Below are positions 3,711 to 40,142 of a stretch of 64,000 bases of DNA, piece by piece (within the stretch, counting starts at the first letter, position 1; each line of letters begins with the position of its first letter). The translations under genes were made by a program, and so were the position numbers. The notes under the pieces were generated by a model, which searched no databases, was not told the DNA's origin, and worked only from the letters and a program-made list of their open reading frames with translations. This stretch comes from Nannocystis pusilla (GTDB taxonomy: Bacteria; Myxococcota_A; Polyangia; Nannocystales; Nannocystaceae). Location: positions 29,990-93,989 of the forward strand of contig NZ_JAIRAU010000047.1 of NCBI RefSeq assembly GCF_020073745.1, written 5' to 3'.

Positions 3711-4184
3711 CTACGCGGTGGCCCTGTCCCAGTTGCCGAACGGCAGCGGCTTGCCGAGCTCGAGGAAGCTCTTGAGGTTGGACAGGATGCCGGGCCACCC
3801 GCGCGACACGCCCTGCAGCACCTTGCTGCCCGCCGGGAACTGGTCGTGCGTCAGCGTCAGACGGACCATCGCCCCGAGCGGCTTGAGCTCGAACGTCACC
3901 CGCGAGGCCGGCTCGGTCGCCTCGCCGTGGTCGACGCCGAAGGTGTACGAGAGCAGCGTCGGCGCCTCGCAGCGCAGCACCTCGCCGGTGATGTCGGTCT
4001 TGCGGCCCTCGTCGTAGCGGTACACGATCGGCGCGCCCGGCTGCCACGTCGATTCGACCCGGCGCCCGCCCCAGTACTTCTCGGTGAAATCGCCCTGCGT
4101 CAGCGCCTCCCACAGCTTCTCCGCCGTGGTGGCGATGTAGAGCACATACACAAAGCTCGGCTTATCCGTCGTCGTCGTCGTCAT
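3711..4184 (-). CDS. SRPBCC superfamily protein (Activator of Hsp90 ATPase homolog 1-like, AHSA1 domain)
   Basis: 157 aa with the conserved architecture of AHSA1/START-like proteins. Overlaps the 3' end of an ArsR-family gene by 23 nt, the usual arsR-ahsa1 pairing. Confidence 0.75.
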   Translation of the reverse strand: MTTTTTDKPSFVYVLYIATTAEKLWEALTQGDFTEKYWGGRRVESTWQPGAPIVYRYDEGRKTDITGEVLRCEAPTLLSYTFGVDHGEATEPASRVTFELKPLGAMVRLTLTHDQFPAGSKVLQGVSRGWPGILSNLKSFLELGKPLPFGNWDRATA

Positions 4185-4518
4185 GATCGTGGTTCTCCTC
4201 GAGGCTCGTCTTGAGGGCGTGCAGGGCCGCCAGGTGGTGGTGCTGGTACTTGCCGATCCAGCGGGCGTAGATGTCGTGGATCGGCACCGGGTTGAGGTAA
4301 TGCAGCTTCTCCCGCCCGCTGCGGACCACGACCACCAGGCCGGCCGCCTCGAGCACCGCGAGGTGCTTGGCGACCGCCTGGCGCGTCATGTCGAGGTGCT
4401 CGCACAGCGCGTGCAACGTCTGGCCGTTGTCGCAGAACAGCCGGTCGAGCAATTGCCGGCGCGTCGCGTCGGCCAGCGCCTTGAACACCTCGTCCATGCG
4501 GGTGGTCCTATCATGCAA
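4162..4518 (-). CDS. ArsR/SmtB family transcriptional regulator
   Basis: Winged-HTH ArsR signature (ALADATRRQLLDRLFCDNGQTLHALCEHLDMTRQAVAKHLAVLEAAGLV). His/Asp-rich C-terminal tail. Confidence 0.85.
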   Translation of the reverse strand: MHDRTTRMDEVFKALADATRRQLLDRLFCDNGQTLHALCEHLDMTRQAVAKHLAVLEAAGLVVVVRSGREKLHYLNPVPIHDIYARWIGKYQHHHLAALHALKTSLEENHDHDDDDDG

Positions 4519-4530
4519 CCTTTTGGTTGC
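4515..4530. promoter_or_regulatory. candidate ArsR operator: perfect inverted repeat GCAACC-TTTT-GGTTGC just upstream of the arsR start
   Basis: Read directly at 4515-4530. Sits in a locally AT-richer stretch (atcatgcaaccttttggttgcttgtcaagtg) consistent with promoter/operator overlap. Confidence 0.45.
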
Positions 4531-4625
4531 TTGTCAAGTGTCGATCGTTGCGGCACACGGCGCAAGACACGCAACGACCCGGGGCTGCTCCGAGCGCACC
4601 TCCTTCGGATTCGCAGCCGCCCTGT

Positions 4626-4997
4626 TCACTCGCAAGGGGCACAAAGACAACGCGCGCCGTCCTCCGCGATCAAGCAGCCCAGCGAGCACCCGCGCGGGTC
4701 GATCGCCTTGCAGTCCGAGTCACAGGTCCGGCGAGCCCACTGCGCCGATTCGCACACGAGCAACGCCTCACCGTCGAGTTCGCAGCGCCGTTCTCCCTGC
4801 GGCTCGCACGGATCTCCGACCCCCGGCTCGTCGCGCATGGGCGGCTCTCCCGAGGTTTCGGTCGCCTCGTCGGAGGTTCCCGCGGTGCATGCCGCGCAGA
4901 GCGCGAGCACGAGACCGCGGACGCTAGGGGTCGTCACAAACACAGGCCGCTCCGCCCGCAAGAAGGGGATCGCACGTGCCCCCGGCACAGGAGTCAT
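4626..4997 (-). CDS. small Cys-rich secreted lipoprotein (start uncertain)
   Basis: Frame of ORF 4626..5303. Hydrophobic segment RGLVLALCAAC (lipobox) followed by a Cys-rich module (CEPQGERRCELDGEALLVCESAQWARRTCDSDCKAIDPRGCSLGCLIAEDGARCLCAPCE). Start could be ATG 4997 or a GTG near 4922. Confidence 0.4.
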   Translation of the reverse strand: MTPVPGARAIPFLRAERPVFVTTPSVRGLVLALCAACTAGTSDEATETSGEPPMRDEPGVGDPCEPQGERRCELDGEALLVCESAQWARRTCDSDCKAIDPRGCSLGCLIAEDGARCLCAPCE

Positions 4998-5616
4998 CGC
5001 AGGGCTCGAGCACCCACGCACCATCCACGCAGGACACAAGTTCGTCGCCCTCGCAGTGCGCTCGCGTGTCCAATGCACAGGGCGTGCCTTCGAGCGTGCA
5101 ACGGCAGCCGCCACCGTGCAGGAACTCATCGCATCCGAGCGATCGCCGGGCCGGTTCGAGCGCGGCGCATACGTCGTCGCAGCCCAGTACAGCGTACTGG
5201 AGGGTGTCTTGCTGGCAAACGCGGACCTCCTGCTCTGACGCGCATGCCAGCGCGCCCGGCGAACATTCGGGGGCGAACGACTCACACCAGCAGAGCGCTC
5301 CATCGCTCGCTACCTCGCCTGCGAGACACCCCACAGCTCCTCCGCGGTCAGCGCACACCTCGTCGCAGTCGACCAGCGCCCAGACGCGCTCGCTACACTC
5401 CCACAGCGAATGTGCGTCCGCGCACTCCGACACGGCGTATCCACACCCGTCACCCTCGTGTCGCCCGTAATCACCGAGGGGAGCCGGCCCAGGATCTCGG
5501 CACGCGACGAAGGCGAGCCCGAACGCGATGGCCTGCCGACACGCCGCCAGCGCCGAACTCCCCCCGCCACGGTCGAACAGCGGCGTCGGGTCGAACCATT
5601 TCACAGCGGCTCGCAC
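4924..5616 (-). CDS. Cys-rich secreted lipoprotein
   Basis: LAFGLAFVAC lipobox followed by about 30 Cys in repeated CxxC/CD contexts. Confidence 0.5.
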   Translation of the reverse strand: MRAAVKWFDPTPLFDRGGGSSALAACRQAIAFGLAFVACRDPGPAPLGDYGRHEGDGCGYAVSECADAHSLWECSERVWALVDCDEVCADRGGAVGCLAGEVASDGALCWCESFAPECSPGALACASEQEVRVCQQDTLQYAVLGCDDVCAALEPARRSLGCDEFLHGGGCRCTLEGTPCALDTRAHCEGDELVSCVDGAWVLEPCDDSCAGGTCDPLLAGGAACVCDDP

Positions 5617-6839
5617 TCCGACTCTGCGACGGAAGCCGTGAAGACGTAGGTGTCCGTCTCGAATACAACGTCGTCAACCACGATCAGGTCGGGATCTCGC
5701 CTTCCGAAGGCCGTGATGGAGTTACCCGCCGTCACTTCGAAGGGAACCGAGCCGGTGACGTCGACCATGTTCCCGGTGACACGCACCCAGATCGAGCCGG
5801 GAGGGAACTCGACACTGGAGCCGTCGGACATACCTGCCGCCGGGGTGATGAGGTTGATCTCGATGTCCTCGAGGTCCGAGCTTCCGTACACCACGTCCTC
5901 GACCTGGAGGCTCAACGTGTCGATCATGAATACGCAGAGCGGATCGAAGCAGGCGTAGTCGGTTGTTGTGATCGTACCCGAAGCCTGCGGCGCCACGAAC
6001 GCGGCTCCGTCGGTGATCTCGATCTCGCTGTCCTCGACAACGCAAGATTGACGCTCCTTCGTCGGAGGCTGGTTCTTCGCCTCCGTGCAGTTGTCCGTGT
6101 TCGTCTCGAAGTCGATCTCGGCGGACGTACACTTGAGATCGAGGACTGCGTCGGCGAAGCACCCCCCTTTCAACACGCCGAGATCCTGTACACAACCCGC
6201 GCTGCCGAGGTTGAGAGTCACCCCCGAACCGGAATCCGCGACGATTTGCACACACAAGTCGAAGTTCTCCAGCAACTTATCCCGCCAGTACTTTACAGAC
6301 TGGGCGATGTTATCTTCACAAACATTAATTTCGATCTGCGAGGGAGGCGGGGTTCCTTCCGAACACTTGTCGTCGGGAGGATCCAGGATCAATGCCTCAA
6401 ATCGCGCCAGTGCATCGCTACAAGCGGCATGTGCACAGTCGACGAGACAGGCTGCATCGCCTTTCTCTTCTCCTTCCGGATCCGCCTCGATCCCCACCTC
6501 GCAGCACGTTTCGACCCGAGGGCCCTCAGTCGGGTCGTCGGAGTTGAAAGGAATGATGCCATCCGCCCCTTCGGTTTCTTCACTGTCAATCAAGATCACT
6601 TGATTTGACTCGACACTGGGCTCGCAGTCGATCTCGTCTTCGTCGTTGAAGTCACAGACAACGAAGCGCAATTCGCCCTGCACCGCCCCTGCGCAGCCGT
6701 ATCGCTGGCCTGGACCGTCCGTCCCTTCGAACACTTGCTGGGCACAGAGCCCACCGGGAGGGGGCAAATCGGCGATTATCGTCGTCTCACCGACCGTCGC
6801 CCCCGTGGCGACCTCGTCGTCTCCACATCCCCCCAACAT
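5601..6839 (-). CDS. acidic Cys-rich hypothetical protein (no signal peptide found)
   Basis: 412-aa ORF with clearly lower GC than the flanks and an in-frame TGA immediately upstream of the ATG. Asp/Glu- and Cys-rich. Composition suggests a foreign origin. Confidence 0.45.
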   Translation of the reverse strand: MLGGCGDDEVATGATVGETTIIADLPPPGGLCAQQVFEGTDGPGQRYGCAGAVQGELRFVVCDFNDEDEIDCEPSVESNQVILIDSEETEGADGIIPFNSDDPTEGPRVETCCEVGIEADPEGEEKGDAACLVDCAHAACSDALARFEALILDPPDDKCSEGTPPPSQIEINVCEDNIAQSVKYWRDKLLENFDLCVQIVADSGSGVTLNLGSAGCVQDLGVLKGGCFADAVLDLKCTSAEIDFETNTDNCTEAKNQPPTKERQSCVVEDSEIEITDGAAFVAPQASGTITTTDYACFDPLCVFMIDTLSLQVEDVVYGSSDLEDIEINLITPAAGMSDGSSVEFPPGSIWVRVTGNMVDVTGSVPFEVTAGNSITAFGRRDPDLIVVDDVVFETDTYVFTASVAESECEPL

Positions 6840-7114
6840 CGTTCAAGTAAAAAACACGCCGGCACACATCATTGCTCTTACAACATTCCAACGCCCAGTC
6901 GCCATGCTGACCTCCAACAGGAAGATATTCGCAGAGGAGGCTTCGCCCTGCAAGCCCTTTCAGAGAACTCCCGTGTGAGCTTACAGCAGACAGCATAAAC
7001 GACGTTATCCCGCCGGGGAAAATCTGTCACAGCGAGTCGAAGCGCAACTTTGTTGCCCACACCTCGCAGAACCCTCTGGCCAATTACCGCCAGCGAATGC
7101 AAAATCCCGCCGAC

Positions 7115-8233
7115 ATGTCATTCCCCGCGTCGAAAGAATCGGTCCGCACGCCGAAGTGGCCGCGAGTGTGCGGTGGCATCGTCGCACTCGGCTTCGCCTG
7201 CGAGAACGACACACCCGTGCCCGAGAGTGAGCCCGTCGACTCCCCGGACGCCGAGATCGTCTACAGCAGCGAACACATCGACATTGCTCCGCTCGGCTCG
7301 GAAGCGCTGTGCGCCGGCACTCTCGCCATGCTCGACGATCACGTGGAGTACGTCCTCGACATGCTCGAGTTGGGGCTGGAAGAACGCATCACCATCTATC
7401 TCTTCCTGAAGGGGGCCGATGTCCCCATTCGCAAGTGGTGCCGGCAGGATGTCTCGGGATGCGCGCGGGGGACCACGATCTATTCGGTCCTGTCTCTGCT
7501 TCCCCACGAAATCGTGCACGCGATCACCTCAAGCGAGGGGCGCTCCTGGTGGGAGGAAGGTGCAGCCCGCGGGCTCGGCGACCCCTCGACCTTCCCCGAT
7601 CTCCTCACCGGCTGGCAGGCGAACCTGGGCGGCGCCGGGCACCTCTCGCGCTGGCTCATCGAGCGCTTCGGCGGCCGGACCTACATGAATCTCTACGCGC
7701 GCACACCGTACGGGGCCTCGCAGGCGAAGGTCGAAGCGGTCGCCCGGACCGTCCTGGGCCGCGAGTTCGACGACGTGCTCGATGAGTATGCGGCCACCGC
7801 TCCCTTCGTCTACCCCCATCACTGGGAGTGCTACGTGTCGTCCGAGGCGGTCGCCGTGCCGTGGGAGGACGAGTACTGGGAGGTTGAGGTCGACCTCGAC
7901 TGCGATCGGACCGACACGTTCAGCAGCCATGTGGCCATTTACGGCATGCAGATGACCGCTCGCGTGCCCGTGACGCTCCCCGCGAACGGGTCTTATTTTT
8001 TCGTCGCCGATCACCCCGACGCCAACCTTGCCATCCAGCCGTGCGCGAGCGAGCCGCGGACGAAGGTGACCCCGGGCGCCTATTCGTGGCCTCTCGAATT
8101 GCTCGGCGCGGCCGGGGCATCACAGCTCGAGGCCGGGCCTCATGTGCTGCTCGTGCATCTCCCGCCCGGGCCGCCGGCTCACGTCCGTATCATCGCCTAC
8201 CCCGAGATCGGCGAGCAGGGCGCACCGCACTGA
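7115..8233 (+). CDS. putative zinc-metalloprotease lipoprotein (HExxH)
   Basis: MSFPASKESVRTPKWPRVCGGIVALGFAC signal plus lipobox. HEIVH (HExxH) motif at LLPHEIVHAITS. The ATG sits in GACATGTCA, a motif-like context. Confidence 0.5.
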   Translation: MSFPASKESVRTPKWPRVCGGIVALGFACENDTPVPESEPVDSPDAEIVYSSEHIDIAPLGSEALCAGTLAMLDDHVEYVLDMLELGLEERITIYLFLKGADVPIRKWCRQDVSGCARGTTIYSVLSLLPHEIVHAITSSEGRSWWEEGAARGLGDPSTFPDLLTGWQANLGGAGHLSRWLIERFGGRTYMNLYARTPYGASQAKVEAVARTVLGREFDDVLDEYAATAPFVYPHHWECYVSSEAVAVPWEDEYWEVEVDLDCDRTDTFSSHVAIYGMQMTARVPVTLPANGSYFFVADHPDANLAIQPCASEPRTKVTPGAYSWPLELLGAAGASQLEAGPHVLLVHLPPGPPAHVRIIAYPEIGEQGAPH

Positions 8234-11215: not shown

Positions 11216-12220
11216 ATGACTGTTCGGCTCGCGCTCGCCGCGGCGCTCGGCCTCGCGCCGGCCGCGGCCTCGACGCCCGCCCCCGAGGGCCCGGCGGCGC
11301 CGCCTGCGAGCCGAAACACCCCCACGGCCGCCCCCGAGGGCCCGGCGCCTGCCCCCGCGAGCCCGCCCCCGCCGGCCCCCACGCGGCCCCCTCCCGTCGA
11401 GGCCGAGGGCAACGCCCGCGCCGAGCCGCCGGGCGGAGTACCGCCGGCCGGCGTGCCGAAGATCCCCTCGCCGCGCTCGCTCGCCACCTACGGCAAGGGC
11501 GGCCCGGTCAAACCGATCTCCGAGGAGACCCTCGGCGCCGTCGGCCTGACGCGCCGGCGCGACGGCACCCTGATGTACGTCGATCCCGGCAAGCGCTTCA
11601 CCGCCGAGTTCAACGCCGACGGCACCGTCCGCTTCGGCGACCGCTGGAACCGCGACCAGCACGGCAACAAGATGAAGGGCTCGCGCGCCGCCCTGCGCCA
11701 GATCAACATGGCCGGCCTCGGCGTCTCCGGCCCCTCGGAGTGGCTGGTCAAGCTGCAGGACCTCATGGGCGGCCCCGAGGTCGACGCCAGCGCCAAGCGC
11801 GAGTTCCTCGACCGCACCCGCGAGCTCCGCACGCAGATGGCGGTCGAGTGGACCATGCGGATCTTGACCTACCGCCTCGGCACGCTCGAGCGCGAGCTGT
11901 TCGAGCTGTGGAGCGCCGCCGGCGACGCCGCCGCCAAGCGCGAGCTGATCTTCCAGCGCTGGGACGAGTGCGACGAGGCCTACCGCGTCACGATCGAGGG
12001 CGAGCTGCCCGAGGAGGCCGTCTCGGAGCTCGATCGCGTGCGCACCGACACCGCCGACCAGGCGCGGCGGATCATCGAGCAGTTCGTGCGCCGCCAGCTG
12101 CCGCGCACCGGCCCGCACGCCTTCAGCCGCAGCGAGCTGACCGACATGAACCGCCGCCGCACCAGCCGGCAAGAGTTCCGCCCCTACGACCTGCAAGCGA
12201 ACAAGAGGACCGCCCCGTGA
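11216..12220 (+). CDS. hypothetical secreted protein with Pro-rich N-terminal region
   Basis: Signal-peptide-like MTVRLALAAALGLAPAAAS. High GC3. Stop overlaps the GTG start of the next gene (GTGA). Confidence 0.5.
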   Translation: MTVRLALAAALGLAPAAASTPAPEGPAAPPASRNTPTAAPEGPAPAPASPPPPAPTRPPPVEAEGNARAEPPGGVPPAGVPKIPSPRSLATYGKGGPVKPISEETLGAVGLTRRRDGTLMYVDPGKRFTAEFNADGTVRFGDRWNRDQHGNKMKGSRAALRQINMAGLGVSGPSEWLVKLQDLMGGPEVDASAKREFLDRTRELRTQMAVEWTMRILTYRLGTLERELFELWSAAGDAAAKRELIFQRWDECDEAYRVTIEGELPEEAVSELDRVRTDTADQARRIIEQFVRRQLPRTGPHAFSRSELTDMNRRRTSRQEFRPYDLQANKRTAP

Positions 12221-13386
12221 CTCCGATCCGCCCCGAACTGCAGCCCGAGCTGGCCCGCTACCGCAGCGACTACCCGATCCTCGCCCACTCGGTCTACATG
12301 AACAGCAACAGCATGGGCGCGATGCCGCGGCAGGCCGCCGACGCCCTGCAGAAGTACACCGACGACTGGGCCCGCGAGGGCGTCGAGGTGTGGCCGCACT
12401 GGCTCGACGTCATGCGCGACACCGCCGACAGCGCCGCGCGCTTCCTCAACGCCCCGCCCGGGCAGACGATCCTCAACCAGAACGTCGCCTACTTCCAGGC
12501 CGCGATCGCCAGCTGCCTCGAGTACCCGAAAGGCAAGAACCGCGTCGTCGTCGAGTCGCTGCAGTTCCCCAACGTCCTCTACGTGTGGGAGCGCTTCACC
12601 GACCTCGGCGCCGAGCTGGCGCTCGTGCCCTCGGACGACGGCATGACGATCCCGACCGAGCGCATGCTCGAGGCGATCGACGAGCGCACCGCGATCGTCC
12701 CGCTGTCGCACGGCATCTACGTCTCGGGCGCGCTGCAGGACATCACCGCGATCACCCGCCGGGCCCACGAGGTCGGCGCGCTCGTCATGGTCGACGTCTA
12801 CCAGACCGCCGGCGCGGTCCCGATCGACGTCGCCGAGTGGGGCGCCGACATCGTCGTCGGCGGCAGCCACAAGTGGCTGTGCGGCGGCCCCGGCACCGCC
12901 TTCATGTGGATGAAGCCCGAGGTGCGCGAGCGCCTGAGGCCGCGCCTGGTCGGCTGGATGGGCCACCAGGACCCGTTCGCGTTCGAGGCGCCGCCGATCC
13001 GCTTCGCCAGCGACCACCGCCACTTCCTCGCCGGCACGCCCTCGATCCCCGCCTACTACGTGGCCCGCGCGGCCTACGAGAACCTGCACGAGATCGGGGT
13101 GCCGCGGATCCGCGCCCACAACCTCGCGCTGTGCCAGCGGATCATCGAGCGGGCCCAGGCCGCCGGCCTCGTGGTCCACTCGCCGCTCGAGCACGAGCGC
13201 CGCACCGGCTTCGTCGCCGTCGACTTCGCAGGCAGCGAGGAGGCCAGCAAGCGCCTCATCGACGAGCACTACAAGCTCGACTGGCGCCCCAACTGCGGCC
13301 TCCGCCTCGGGCCCCACTTCTACAACACGGAGGCCGAGGTCGAGCGCATGATGGACCGCATCGTCGCCCTCGCCGGCCGCGCGTGA
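12217..13386 (+). CDS. aminotransferase class V-fold PLP-dependent enzyme (kynureninase/SufS-like fold)
   Basis: GTG start overlapping the upstream stop. PLP-lysine context GGSHKWLCGGPG. Overall class-V aminotransferase layout. Confidence 0.7.
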   Translation: MTPIRPELQPELARYRSDYPILAHSVYMNSNSMGAMPRQAADALQKYTDDWAREGVEVWPHWLDVMRDTADSAARFLNAPPGQTILNQNVAYFQAAIASCLEYPKGKNRVVVESLQFPNVLYVWERFTDLGAELALVPSDDGMTIPTERMLEAIDERTAIVPLSHGIYVSGALQDITAITRRAHEVGALVMVDVYQTAGAVPIDVAEWGADIVVGGSHKWLCGGPGTAFMWMKPEVRERLRPRLVGWMGHQDPFAFEAPPIRFASDHRHFLAGTPSIPAYYVARAAYENLHEIGVPRIRAHNLALCQRIIERAQAAGLVVHSPLEHERRTGFVAVDFAGSEEASKRLIDEHYKLDWRPNCGLRLGPHFYNTEAEVERMMDRIVALAGRA

Positions 13387-13416
13387 TTCGTCCGAGCACC
13401 ACTCCTGCCGAGCGCG

Positions 13417-13440
13417 GGGTCGCATCGACCGATGCGACCC
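13417..13440. terminator. 10-bp perfect stem hairpin (GGGTCGCATC / GATGCGACCC, 4-nt loop) 3' of the aminotransferase gene
   Basis: Inverted repeat read directly. No T-tract follows, which is usual in GC-rich genomes. Confidence 0.3.
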
Positions 13441-13570
13441 GCGGGGAGCCGGGCCAAGGCGCAAGGAGCCGGGCCGATGCGAGGCGGGCCGATGCGAGGC
13501 GCGGGAGCCGGGCCGATGCGAGGCGGGCCGATGCGAGGCGCGGGAGCCGGGCCGATGCGAGGGCGCGGGG
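13441..13570. repeat. tandem repeat, about 3.3 copies of a 39-bp unit (ggagccgggccgatgcgaggcgggccgatgcgaggcgcg)
   Basis: Read directly. Each unit contains two copies of gggccgatgcgaggc. Confidence 0.7.
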
Positions 13571-13590
13571 CTGCGGAAGAACTGGGTGGG

Positions 13591-13762
13591 GCGGGCCGGG
13601 CGTGGCGAGAATGGGTCCCTCGCGACGCGAGACCTGCCATGCCAGATGCTCGCCGCCGACGTGGTCCTCGGGACATGTCCGACGATTGGCTCGGCGGCTG
13701 CGCGTCAGGCATGGGGCCCCTCGCTGCGTCCCATTCTCGCCACGCCCGGCCCGCCCCGCGAC
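13591..13762. mobile_element. MITE-like 172-bp element, copy A, with perfect 25-bp terminal inverted repeats and a central GGACATGTCC
   Basis: Left end gcgggccgggcgtggcgagaatggg. Right end is its exact reverse complement (cccattctcgccacgcccggcccgc). The interior is an imperfect palindrome centred on cgggacatgtccgac. Confidence 0.6.
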
Positions 13763-13884
13763 GATCGTCTCGGGCCCCGCTCGGCGAGACGCGGAGACCG
13801 TCGTGCCGCCGGAATGGTGGTGGCGCTGCTGCTTCTCCCGGTTCTCTTCCCACCCCACGTGTCGTGCACGACGCGACCGAGTCC

Positions 13885-14020
13885 CCTGCACCCATTCACC
13901 GCCGCGACTCCTCGCCGCACGACGAGCAAGACCCAACCTGCTCCCCGTGCCCCTGCACCCATTCACCCCCGCGACTCCTCGCCGCACGACGAGCGGGACC
14001 CGAGACGCTCCCCGTGCCCC
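13885..14020. repeat. two tandem copies of a ~68-bp direct repeat
   Basis: cctgcacccattcacc(g/c)ccgcgactcctcgccgcacgacgagc... occurs twice in succession. Confidence 0.6.
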
Positions 14021-14233
14021 TGTACCGGGACGATCGTCGTCCCACACCGCCGATTCGCCTATCGATACGCCCGACGAACCGTTACCCGAGACGCACTCCC
14101 ACCCGCGCCGCAGATTCGCTCTCACACCTTCGTCACGCCGAGCCACACCGAGACGCACGCCCTCCCGCACCGCCGATTCGCCGGCACGACATTGTTCGCC
14201 TCACGAAGCGCGGGGCCCGAGACGATCGCCGCG

Positions 14234-14402
14234 GGGCGGGCCGGACGCGGCGAGAATGGGACGCAGCGAGGGGCCCCATGCCTGACGCGCAGCCGCCGAG
14301 CCAATCGTCGGACATGTCCCAAGAACCACATCGGCGGCGAGCATCTGGCATGGCAGGTCTCGCGTCGCGAGGGACCCGTTCTCGCCGCATCCGGCCCGCC
14401 CC
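14234..14402. mobile_element. MITE-like element, copy A', inverted relative to copy A (about 90% identical)
   Basis: Reverse complement of 13591-13762 with a few substitutions. Centre is cggacatgtccc. Together with copy A it brackets 470 bp. Confidence 0.55.
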
Positions 14403-14463
14403 ACCCAGTTCTCCCGCAGCCCCGCGCCCCCGCATCGGCCAGCCCTCGCCGCACCCGTCCGCC

Positions 14464-14784
14464 ATGCACCCCGACTACGCCCGCATCTACGCCACCATCC
14501 AGCGGATCCCCCGCGGCCGCGTCGCCACCTACGGCCAGATCGCCGAGCTCGCCGGTCTGCCCGGCCGCGCCCGCCAGGTCGGCTACGCCCTGCACGCCTT
14601 GCCTGGCGGCAGCCCCGTCCCGTGGCAGCGCGTCCTCAACGCCCGCGGCGAGATCAGCCTGCCCGGGGCCTCCGGCGCCCGCCAGCGCACCCTCCTGATC
14701 GAGGAGGGCGTCGAGTTCGGCGACAGCGGCCGCATCGATCTCGCCACCTACCAGTGGCGGCCGCGCCCCGCCCGGCGTCGCTGA
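14464..14784 (+). CDS. alkyltransferase-like (Atl) protein, MGMT DNA-binding-domain family without the Cys acceptor
   Basis: 107 aa. MGMT C-domain sequence with PWQRV in place of PCHRV, the hallmark of Atl/YbaZ proteins. Confidence 0.7.
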   Translation: MHPDYARIYATIQRIPRGRVATYGQIAELAGLPGRARQVGYALHALPGGSPVPWQRVLNARGEISLPGASGARQRTLLIEEGVEFGDSGRIDLATYQWRPRPARRR

Positions 14785-14790
14785 CCTTTC

Positions 14791-14864
14791 GCGCATGTCC
14801 CTGACGGCATGTCCTCACCGACATGTCCTCGTCGACATGTCCTCGATCGCATGCCCCCATGACC
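14791..14864. repeat. array of 5-6 RCATGYCC units with 13-bp period directly after the Atl stop
   Basis: cgcatgtccc-tgac-ggcatgtcc-tcac-cgacatgtcc-tcgt-cgacatgtcc-tcga-tcgcatgcccc-catgacc read directly. Confidence 0.7.
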
Positions 14865-18024: not shown

Positions 18025-18090
18025 GGACATGTCCCTTACGACATGTCCTCCAAAACACTCCCCATCAGACATGCCCCTCAGGACATGTCC
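18025..18090. repeat. array of four GGACATGTCC-type units between pmbA and the 17402..17806 gene
   Basis: ggacatgtccc / cgacatgtcc / agacatgcccc / ggacatgtcc, with two exact GGACATGTCC copies. Confidence 0.7.
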
Positions 18091-27694: not shown

Positions 27695-27732
27695 GGTCAT
27701 GTCCCCCAGGGCATGTCCTTTCGAGCATGCCC
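27695..27732. repeat. three RCATGYCC units right after the OmpA-family gene stop
   Basis: ggtcatgtccc-ccagg-gcatgtcc-tttcg-agcatgccc. Confidence 0.65.
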
Positions 27733-28710: not shown

Positions 28711-28793
28711 CGCACCTGTCGCCAGGGCCATGTCCCTAGCGACATTTTTTAAAAGACATGCCCCGGGCGACATGCCCGAGCAGACATGCGCCC
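28711..28793. repeat. array of 6-7 RCATGYCC units with 14-bp period containing an AT-rich anomaly (gacattttttaaaagacatg) between convergent genes
   Basis: cgcacctgtcg / gccatgtccc / gacatttttt / gacatgcccc / gacatgcccg / gacatgcgccc. Confidence 0.7.
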
Positions 28794-40090: not shown

Positions 40091-40142
40091 GACACGCCCC
40101 TTTCAACATGTCCCATCACACATGCTCCTGACGACATGCCCG
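40090..40142. repeat. four RCATGYCC units between trpF and the Mur ligase gene
   Basis: cgacacgcccc / aacatgtccc / cacatgctcc / gacatgcccg, with 4-nt spacers. Confidence 0.6.

Follow-up and report, generated by a model that had tools for sequence, protein, structure and literature searches.

A convergent pair of hairpin-containing repeats in Nannocystis pusilla as a possible non-autonomous derivative of an IS1182-type insertion sequence

The 64,000-nucleotide stretch of Nannocystis pusilla DNA analyzed here (contig NZ_JAIRAU010000047.1, positions 29,990 to 93,989; hereafter the window) carries two long inverted repeats, each able to fold into a hairpin, in a non-coding block between a kynureninase-like gene (gene A) and an MGMT-like gene (gene B). 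With a probability of roughly 0.5, what lies at about 13540-14450 is a single element rather than two, namely a non-autonomous derivative of an IS1182-type insertion sequence that has no transposase and has long hairpin-containing ends. Copies of the repeat unit are dispersed, are present or absent at orthologous sites, recur as convergent pairs and have co-varying stems, and one pair encloses the relic of an IS1182-family transposase. The two ends would be inverted modules of ~270 bp, each with a hairpin of roughly 215 nt, and the insertion would have brought ~0.9 kb into a very short spacer between the two genes in an ancestor shared by the window's species and N. radixulma. A sequence-only reading of the window had instead proposed two MITEs (short for miniature inverted-repeat transposable elements) of 170 bp, bounded by perfect 25-bp terminal inverted repeats (TIRs) and bracketing 470 bp as a composite, potentially mobilisable unit.

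Two inverted hairpin units in the window

The repeats from which the MITE proposal was made are present. The 25-mer GCGGGCCGGGCGTGGCGAGAATGGG lies at 13591-13615 on the plus strand and its exact reverse complement at 13730-13754, as compared to 0 such occurrences expected from 100 shuffles, and the proposed center GGACATGTCC sits at the midpoint, 13671-13680. The first element had been placed at 13591-13762. Its start is correct, but the repeats bound 13591-13754 (164 bp), so that 13762 is a few bases over. The second copy is indeed inverted, with stems at 14236-14260 and 14375-14399 and its center at 14310-14319, and the estimate of ~90% identity between the copies agrees with the ~92% measured in the inverted register, as compared to 71-75% in the direct register. 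The two 25-mers of copy 2 mismatch each other at 2 positions; the repeats are perfect in copy 1 only.

A repeat finder returned full inverted arms of 273 nt at 13550-13822 and 14168-14440, which are 90% complementary and 345 nt apart. Within the first, the family-conserved hairpin unit A occupies 13551-13796 on the plus strand (nhmmer 13553-13796, E = 1.6e-71; also alignments A1 and A2, and the fold). Its outer closing stem is at 13565-13571 and 13774-13780, its conserved asymmetric cores are at 13620-13652 and 13698-13733, and its apex is the central GGACATGTCC. The inner-end motif of arm A, GGAGACCGTCGTGCCGCCGG..., follows at 13793-13822 on the same strand; it is conserved in the family and lies ~45 nt beyond the closing stem. 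Arm B is the inverted copy on the minus strand (repeat pair I1) and contains a hairpin unit at 14195-14438 (nhmmer 14438-14195, E = 4e-73), with cores at 14257-14292 and 14338-14370 and the inner motif at 14183-14194. The fold of the hairpin unit is near-perfect (-136 kcal/mol, z = -11 as compared to shuffles). A profile search with nhmmer found only these two unit copies in the 64 kb.

The block between the two genes, 13387-14463, lacks codon periodicity, unlike the flanking genes with their strong periodicity of GC at the third codon position (GC3). Long open reading frames (ORFs) across the block were rejected as genes; they are artefacts of 73% GC and show no coding periodicity.

The units belong to a dispersed family

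One genome per species was scanned with a slightly degenerate 25-mer pattern, which matched six N. radixulma loci with at least 8 units and one N. punicea locus. A scan of metagenomes with a conserved core 20-mer found two soil contigs with copies (L010 and L012), and the comparison of orthologues added copies in Nannocystis sp. SCPEA4 as well as a diverged one in locus L027. A transposable element had been suggested from the window alone, and further copies are now seen in soil metagenomes and in N. radixulma, N. punicea and Nannocystis sp. SCPEA4. The alternative of an immobile, merely local inverted duplication, which was to be the reading if the genome held no further copies and no flanking target-site duplications were present, is suggested by the presence of just two copies in the window. 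It is refuted by the copies at at least five other loci in N. radixulma, in other species and in metagenomes, as well as by empty sites in relatives.

All units are intergenic, and their orientation relative to neighboring genes is inconsistent. Single units account for about half of the loci and are about as common as pairs. In the case of N. radixulma locus L005, which is the orthologue of the window locus at ~92% identity, the same pair is present. The two units are spaced 853 nt apart, start to start, as compared to 645 nt in the window. The L005 interior has more inner-end tandem repeats than that of the window, and at the outer side L005 carries three tandem 62-nt copies of the outer end in place of the window's 39-nt-register repeats.

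Two further sets of matches were rejected as copies. The Nocardiopsis match (L004) is an unrelated terminator-like hairpin that has a GC-rich 25-mer alone in common with the unit, and the metagenome matches L009 and L011 reflect a 20-mer occurring by chance within a coding region.

A similarity search of the unit against plasmid and phage collections gave no match, nor did the core 20-mer match viral contigs, and a full-text literature search for Nannocystis repeats or myxobacterial MITEs returned nothing specific. With no match in the literature searched in full text, in Rfam or in plasmid or phage records, the repeat family is undescribed. Its general kind, the bacterial non-autonomous repeat, is familiar; unusual are the ~215-nt hairpin terminal modules, the stems that co-vary around conserved cores and the obligate convergent pairing. 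The host genus has very large genomes, 11-13 Mb.

Filled and empty sites among relatives

Orthologous spacers were compared at two loci. At the window locus, genes A and B are separated by 5 nt in N. exedens (L013, TAGgcgccATG), and by 24 nt (L025) and ~110 nt (L023) in two outgroup lineages, with no unit in either. The same spacer measures 1,077 nt in the window, the whole of the non-coding block, and ~1,350 nt in N. radixulma (L005). The sites in N. exedens and in the two outgroup lineages are empty, and the blocks of the window and of N. radixulma are therefore derived. At the second locus, only 1 nt separates the sbcD-like from the sbcC-like gene in L028. One unit occupies this spacer in L027 and in N. 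punicea (L008), and a convergent pair occupies it in Nannocystis sp. SCPEA4 (L026) and in N. radixulma (L006). Both characterized insertion sites are stop/start junctions.

These comparisons demonstrate that the unit family, being dispersed, gene-less and present or absent among relatives, is or was mobile DNA. The element is also a clean presence/absence marker between Nannocystis lineages. Its insertion splits two genes that are adjacent in relatives. Because it lies between genes A and B, the MGMT-like gene must be expressed from or through the element.

Flanking target-site duplications, which the sequence-only reading had expected of a mobile element, were not visible at the flanks of 16 copies or in the two filled/empty comparisons, where tandem duplications blur the unit ends and a 2-4-bp duplication could hide.

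Recurrent convergent pairs

Pairs of units are found at four independent loci (window/L005, L006/L026, L012 and L010), and in each instance the two units converge, both presenting the same end to the interior. The window's interior, 13823-14167 between the arms, consists of ~60 nt of unique sequence followed by tandem repeats, 67 nt x2 at 13883-14016 and 61-62 nt x3 at 14025-14181, the last of which overlaps arm B by 14 nt. These repeats are decayed copies of the inner end of arm B (repeat families D3 and D4, pair I4, and a comparison of interiors). The interior has no gene and no transposase remnant.

The proposal that two MITEs bracket 470 bp of cargo is not borne out by this interior, which is built up from tandem repeats of the inner end of the arm itself and has no coding ORF. 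A composite transposon consists of two mobile copies and unrelated cargo, and the window does not show this arrangement. The recurrence of convergent pairs, the end-derived interior and the transposase relic at L010 together make the pair look like the two ends of one element.

The 25-mers are an internal stem

The anatomy of the family was read from 13-16 aligned copies, 13 of which make up alignment A2. The family unit is ~232-290 bp long, with inter-copy homology over ~232-245 nt plus the inner motif. This homology begins at CCGATSCG, some 40 nt outward of the left 25-mer. It takes in a 7-bp closing stem (GCGGGGC...GCCCCGC) and reaches ~45-60 nt beyond this stem, to the motif GTCGTGCCGGCGAA or GTGTCCGACGA. 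The boundaries of a 170-bp element are therefore not those of the family, as homology extends ~40 nt outward and ~60 nt inward of the 25-mers. Because it continues past them on both sides, the supposed TIRs are an internal stem and not terminal repeats. In L010 and L027, this stem has been swapped on both sides while the inner core was kept.

The asymmetric inner cores, TCGCGACGCGAGACCTGCCATGCCAGATGCTCG and CTGCGCGTCAGGCATGGGGCCCCTCGCTGCGTCCCA, are identical in 13 of the 13 copies of A2. In L027, the most diverged copy, the left core has changed and part of the right core is missing. At the unit apex, GTCCGA alone is invariant and the full palindrome is not.

Locus L027 belongs to a metagenome-assembled relative, in which a single diverged unit with a distinct stem sequence occupies the sbcD-like/sbcC-like spacer (5007-5152). 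This unit is without ~30 nt of the right-hand core, and its left core would form a large unpaired bulge. The L027 subfamily may reveal which parts of the unit are dispensable.

This anatomy bears directly on the reading of 170-bp MITEs with 25-bp terminal repeats whose pair mobilizes the enclosed DNA as a composite. The repeats of copy A are perfect, the family is multi-copy and pairs do recur, and the units share with MITEs a small size (<~600 bp) and the absence of coding capacity. The reading is nevertheless improbable. Homology passes the 25-mers on both sides, and their wholesale replacement in L010 and L027 with the interior kept is the opposite of the pattern that a terminus bound by a transposase should show. 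Conserved inverted repeats at the true ends, a trait of MITEs, are not found, and neither are target duplications or cargo, the interior being end-derived tandem repeats. No N. radixulma element has these 25-mers around a transposase; the candidate MITE parent is the decayed IS1182 transposase in L010 only, with no intact copy seen.

Correia/NEMIS of Neisseria and ERIC/IRU of enterobacteria are MITEs with long palindromic bodies. Like them, the Nannocystis units are small, non-coding, intergenic, multi-copy and insertion-polymorphic, and form long hairpins. However, in Correia/NEMIS and ERIC/IRU the terminal repeats are conserved and the target duplications are defined (TA for Correia), whereas the units described here have fuzzy termini, a co-varying "TIR", no duplication seen and fixed convergent pairs. 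For annotation, this calls for caution: perfect inverted repeats within a long palindrome need not be transposon termini.

Stem co-variation

Variation in the long stem and in the apical stem is compensatory, and in L010 and L027 it extends to the entire 25-mer, which is different on both sides. Overall, 97.7% of alignment cells are paired. Double compensatory changes were found in 18 of 72 pairs, as compared to 6.5 +/- 1.6 in shuffled alignments and 2-4 when the partners were slid. A folded single strand, whether DNA or RNA, would explain this co-variation, as would two ends that match one protein, and co-variation alone is no indication of RNA.

Pairing and compensation of this extent, together with the conserved asymmetric cores, are what a structured non-coding RNA gene or cis-regulatory RNA duplicated around the genome would show. 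The fold also has a strand bias in this direction, albeit a weak one, with one strand folding better in 9 of 13 copies and ~2x G-U pairs. An RNA is still quite improbable as an explanation of the unit. A search of the whole window against Rfam 15 gave no match at gathering thresholds, and over the block only chance microRNA-type matches (E above 0.5) appeared up to E = 10. A scan found no promoter-like or terminator-like site, and the units are inconsistently oriented to their neighbors. Presence or absence in close species between tightly spaced genes resembles insertion, and the near-perfect two-fold symmetry indicates a feature at the DNA level. Finally, the orthologous units of the window and N. 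radixulma are 93.5-95.5% identical, as compared to 86-93% at four-fold degenerate sites. Divergence between the two is like that of four-fold degenerate sites, and no purifying selection on the units is detectable in this comparison.

The possibility that the hairpin arms arose as a palindromic duplication of inner-end sequence was also considered and rejected, as local alignments gave z below 2 in comparison to shuffles.

An IS1182-family transposase relic between two units

In the soil metagenome contig L010, the 550 nt between the units encode a broken IS1182-family transposase on the minus strand. The relic is frameshifted and internally deleted. Relative to a Roseomonas homologue, what remains of it is the N terminus (aa 1-17), aa 98-130 and aa 353-433, and it is 54-73% identical to this Roseomonas IS1182 transposase over the aligned pieces (sample stretch: KQIVEPVFGQIKAALGFTRFLMRS ... 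HEWRLVCTAHNL). The match to NCBIfam NF033551 has E = 3e-14 and covers profile positions 429-483 of 488. Both ends of the relic ORF abut inner unit ends, with the C terminus ~10-30 nt from one unit, and an 18-nt exact repeat joins the last codons of the relic to the stem of the neighboring unit. Non-autonomous elements classically arise by internal deletion of the transposase while the ends stay intact.

Several properties of the units are shared with this family of DDE transposases (NF033551, Pfam DDE_Tnp_1_6). IS1272, a member of the IS1182 family, makes no target duplication and inserts at stem-loops just downstream of genes, and in IS1272L the left end carries a 25-bp tandem duplication (PMC5678879). 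In addition to the L010 relic, the units resemble IS1272/IS1182 in having no visible target duplication, insertion after stops at stop/start junctions, tandem-duplicated ends and a GTCC-core motif at their tips; the first three of these traits are permissive and not diagnostic. However, the known IS1182 members have simple 16-21-bp terminal repeats, whereas the ends described here would be ~270 bp long with a 215-nt near-perfect hairpin. IS1182 members also encode a transposase, whereas the window copy is without one and no intact autonomous copy was seen.

An IS1182 copy on plasmid pLVM1 of Methylobacterium sp. DM1 (L031) has its right terminal repeat twice, ~65 nt apart (features at 785-857, 2242-2260 and 2258-2330). 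This doubled right end is a tandem end duplication, like those of IS1272L and of the Nannocystis unit ends.

Three alpha-proteobacterial IS1182 members have the terminal repeat CTAGGAG..GTCC..GTAAC in common. When compared to the IS1182 consensus AGGAGSSYGTCCSRGTAAC, which is alpha-proteobacterial, the outer tip, apex and inner motif of the units show 2-4 mismatches in 14, for example 2 in 14 at the L005b tip and at the L007 apex. The inner-end motif of arm A has a weak likeness to IS1182-family terminal repeats, at motif level only. This apparent likeness of the termini is only supportive of an IS1182 origin.

If the block is an IS1182-type derivative, its history could be as follows. An IS1182-type transposase, supplied in trans, would recognize GTCC-core motifs at the outer tip and perhaps subterminally, with the hairpin functioning in recognition. 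Movement would be by cut-and-paste into intergenic sites right after stop codons, with no or a very short target duplication, and would depend on the IS1182-type transposase. The element would be prone to tandem duplication of its own ends. The central transposase gene would then have been lost, with inner-end tandem copies remaining, and the single units seen elsewhere would be solo ends. The units would in that case belong to the insertion sequence rather than being its target. The IS1182 family would gain members with ~270-bp self-folding ends, which would bear on DNA recognition by the little-studied, stem-loop-seeking transposases that act without target duplication.

A number of observations weigh against an IS1182 origin. 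The link comes from a single 1-kb metagenomic contig (L010), the units of which belong to a diverged subfamily. A tblastn search with the full IS1182 transposase found no transposase remnants in the interiors of the pairs other than L010, including that of the window, and the 25-mer scan of N. radixulma found no intact transposase flanked by units. The matches to the terminal-repeat consensus are weak, given that ~1% of window positions match it at 4 or fewer mismatches. Some IS1182 members leave a 4-bp duplication, and typical repeats are 16-21 bp (PMC3281130); ends of 270 bp with a 215-nt hairpin would be unprecedented in the family. About half of the loci are single units. Moreover, because IS1182-type elements target stem-loops, the L010 relic could have arrived later, by insertion into a palindromic pair that was already present.

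Units as targets of other insertion sequences

The last point belongs to an alternative in which the hairpin unit is an independent extragenic palindrome, either REPIN/BIME-like or a MITE of unknown parent, that spreads and clusters by itself, with IS110 and IS1182 elements merely landing in it. This alternative is less likely than an IS1182 origin but is the main rival to it. Single units are about as frequent as pairs, and no target duplication is visible. As in REP, REPIN and BIME sequences, the units are clustering extragenic palindromes, and their stems co-vary around a conserved inner core in the manner of REPIN hairpins, which are kept by compensation. IS1272 is known to target inverted-repeat structures (PMC5678879), and an IS110-family element lies inside a unit of L006 with its CT core duplicated, so the units do attract other insertion sequences.

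Other features do not fit an independent palindrome. REPs are 20-40 nt long, are present in hundreds of copies per genome and come with a REP-flanked RAYT gene, whereas the units are 232-290 nt long (6-10x REP length) and number ~10 per genome. Over the ~250 kb inspected, neither the window nor the loci showed a Y1 (RAYT-type) transposase, and no RAYT gene lies beside the units in the inspected loci. The convergent orientation of 4 of 4 pairs is unexpected from independent insertions, and the L010 relic occupies the whole interior with both of its ORF ends abutting units.

For elements of the IS110/IS1111 group, targeting of repeats is known, examples being IS621 in REPs and IS4321/IS5075 in the terminal repeats of Tn21. 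The IS110-family element of N. radixulma L006 (1356-2732) encodes a 323-aa transposase with PF01548 and PF02371. Its target reads GGGTCC/CT/CGCGACG, with the CT dinucleotide on both sides of the element, and is found intact in the window at 13613-13627 and 14363-14377. An 85%-identical IS110 homologue is inserted at GGGTCCT/CT/CGC within an IS91-like transposase gene (L020). Since the same short target is used in this unrelated gene, the IS110 target is a short sequence and not the unit. The IS110 element is thus a secondary passenger and gives no explanation of how the units spread. A 1.5-kb pair of 25-mers in L006, the one widely spaced pair that the 25-mer scan showed in N. radixulma, was considered as an autonomous parent and rejected, as it is a unit split by the unrelated IS110-family element.

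Short CATGTCC motifs

The palindrome GGACATGTCC occurs 10 times in the window, as compared to 0.04 expected. Arrays of CATG[TC]CC keep a strict 14-nt register (spacings of 14, 28 and 56) and have a median distance to the nearest stop codon of 36 nt; examples are found at 14794-14858, 18025-18090, 27698-27732, 28729-28777 and 40107-40141. Outside the block, 34 intergenic motif sites were counted with reference to the plus strand, 25 of them plus only and 1 minus only. Twelve of the 34 adjoin the stop codon of a minus-strand gene, and the motif within genes is unbiased (10 vs 13). The orientation of the motif follows the chromosome and not the gene over the 64 kb, because 25 sites against 1 point one way despite the 12 of 34 at minus-strand stops.

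Short-motif arrays are also present at unit-free loci of N. exedens (L013, 6497-6887 and 9253-9309). In a more distant lineage, CCTGTCC replaces CATGTCC in the same 14-nt arrays (L023, 4165-4258; L025, 1623-1646), and this variant fills the empty A-B spacer in the two outgroup lineages. The motif therefore varies by lineage while the register is retained. The short palindromes had been proposed as possible eroded or miniaturized derivatives of the larger unit. This idea is contradicted by the wider distribution of the motifs; their presence at N. exedens and outgroup loci without the unit means that they are not eroded unit remains. The motif and the unit share at most a short core, and the unit apex carries one copy of the motif.

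The CATGTCC motif is similar to the GTCC core found in IS1182 terminal repeats, and the motif and the unit may be linked through a shared binding protein. A bolder extension, which we regard as unlikely, is that the hairpin modules and the genus-wide CATGTCC arrays form one system. An IS1182-type or domesticated transposase recognizing the GTCC core would have seeded almost every gene 3' end with 14-nt-register arrays, in one orientation over tens of kb whatever the gene strand. Were this so, the giant hairpin ends would be a new terminus design, for example a palindromic duplication of an end, and the arrays would amount to a genome-wide polar imprint of a transposase, not a handful of dead repeats.

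Flanking genes and other features of the window

Gene A (12217-13386, plus strand) encodes a kynureninase-like protein of aminotransferase class V with strong GC3 periodicity; its homologues have PF00266 and PF22580. Gene B (14464-14784, plus strand) encodes a 106-aa MGMT-type DNA_binding_1 domain protein. It shows GC3 periodicity inside a longer ORF, and its orthologues in L013, L023 and L025 carry PF01035. The outer tip of arm B, the reverse complement GGCGAGGGCTGGCCGATGCGGGG, lies at 14428-14450 on the minus strand, 14 nt ahead of the start codon of gene B.

On the other side of the block, tandem partial duplications of the outer tip GGAGCCGGGCCGATGCGAGG occupy 13465-13562 on the plus strand in a 15/24/39-nt register (repeat families D1 and D2). 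Upstream of these, a small hairpin with a perfect 15-bp stem was read directly at 13413-13443, right behind the stop codon of the kynureninase-like gene. It consists of two inverted copies of the outer-tip sequence CGATGCGAC... and may now serve as a 3' stem-loop of this gene.

A separate patch of the window, at ~4000-8000, has a GC content of 0.58-0.67, as compared to 0.70-0.78 elsewhere. No transposase was seen there. Its translations, read without a domain search, include an ArsR-like regulator, an SRPBCC-like protein and cysteine-rich secreted proteins, and the patch may be horizontally acquired.

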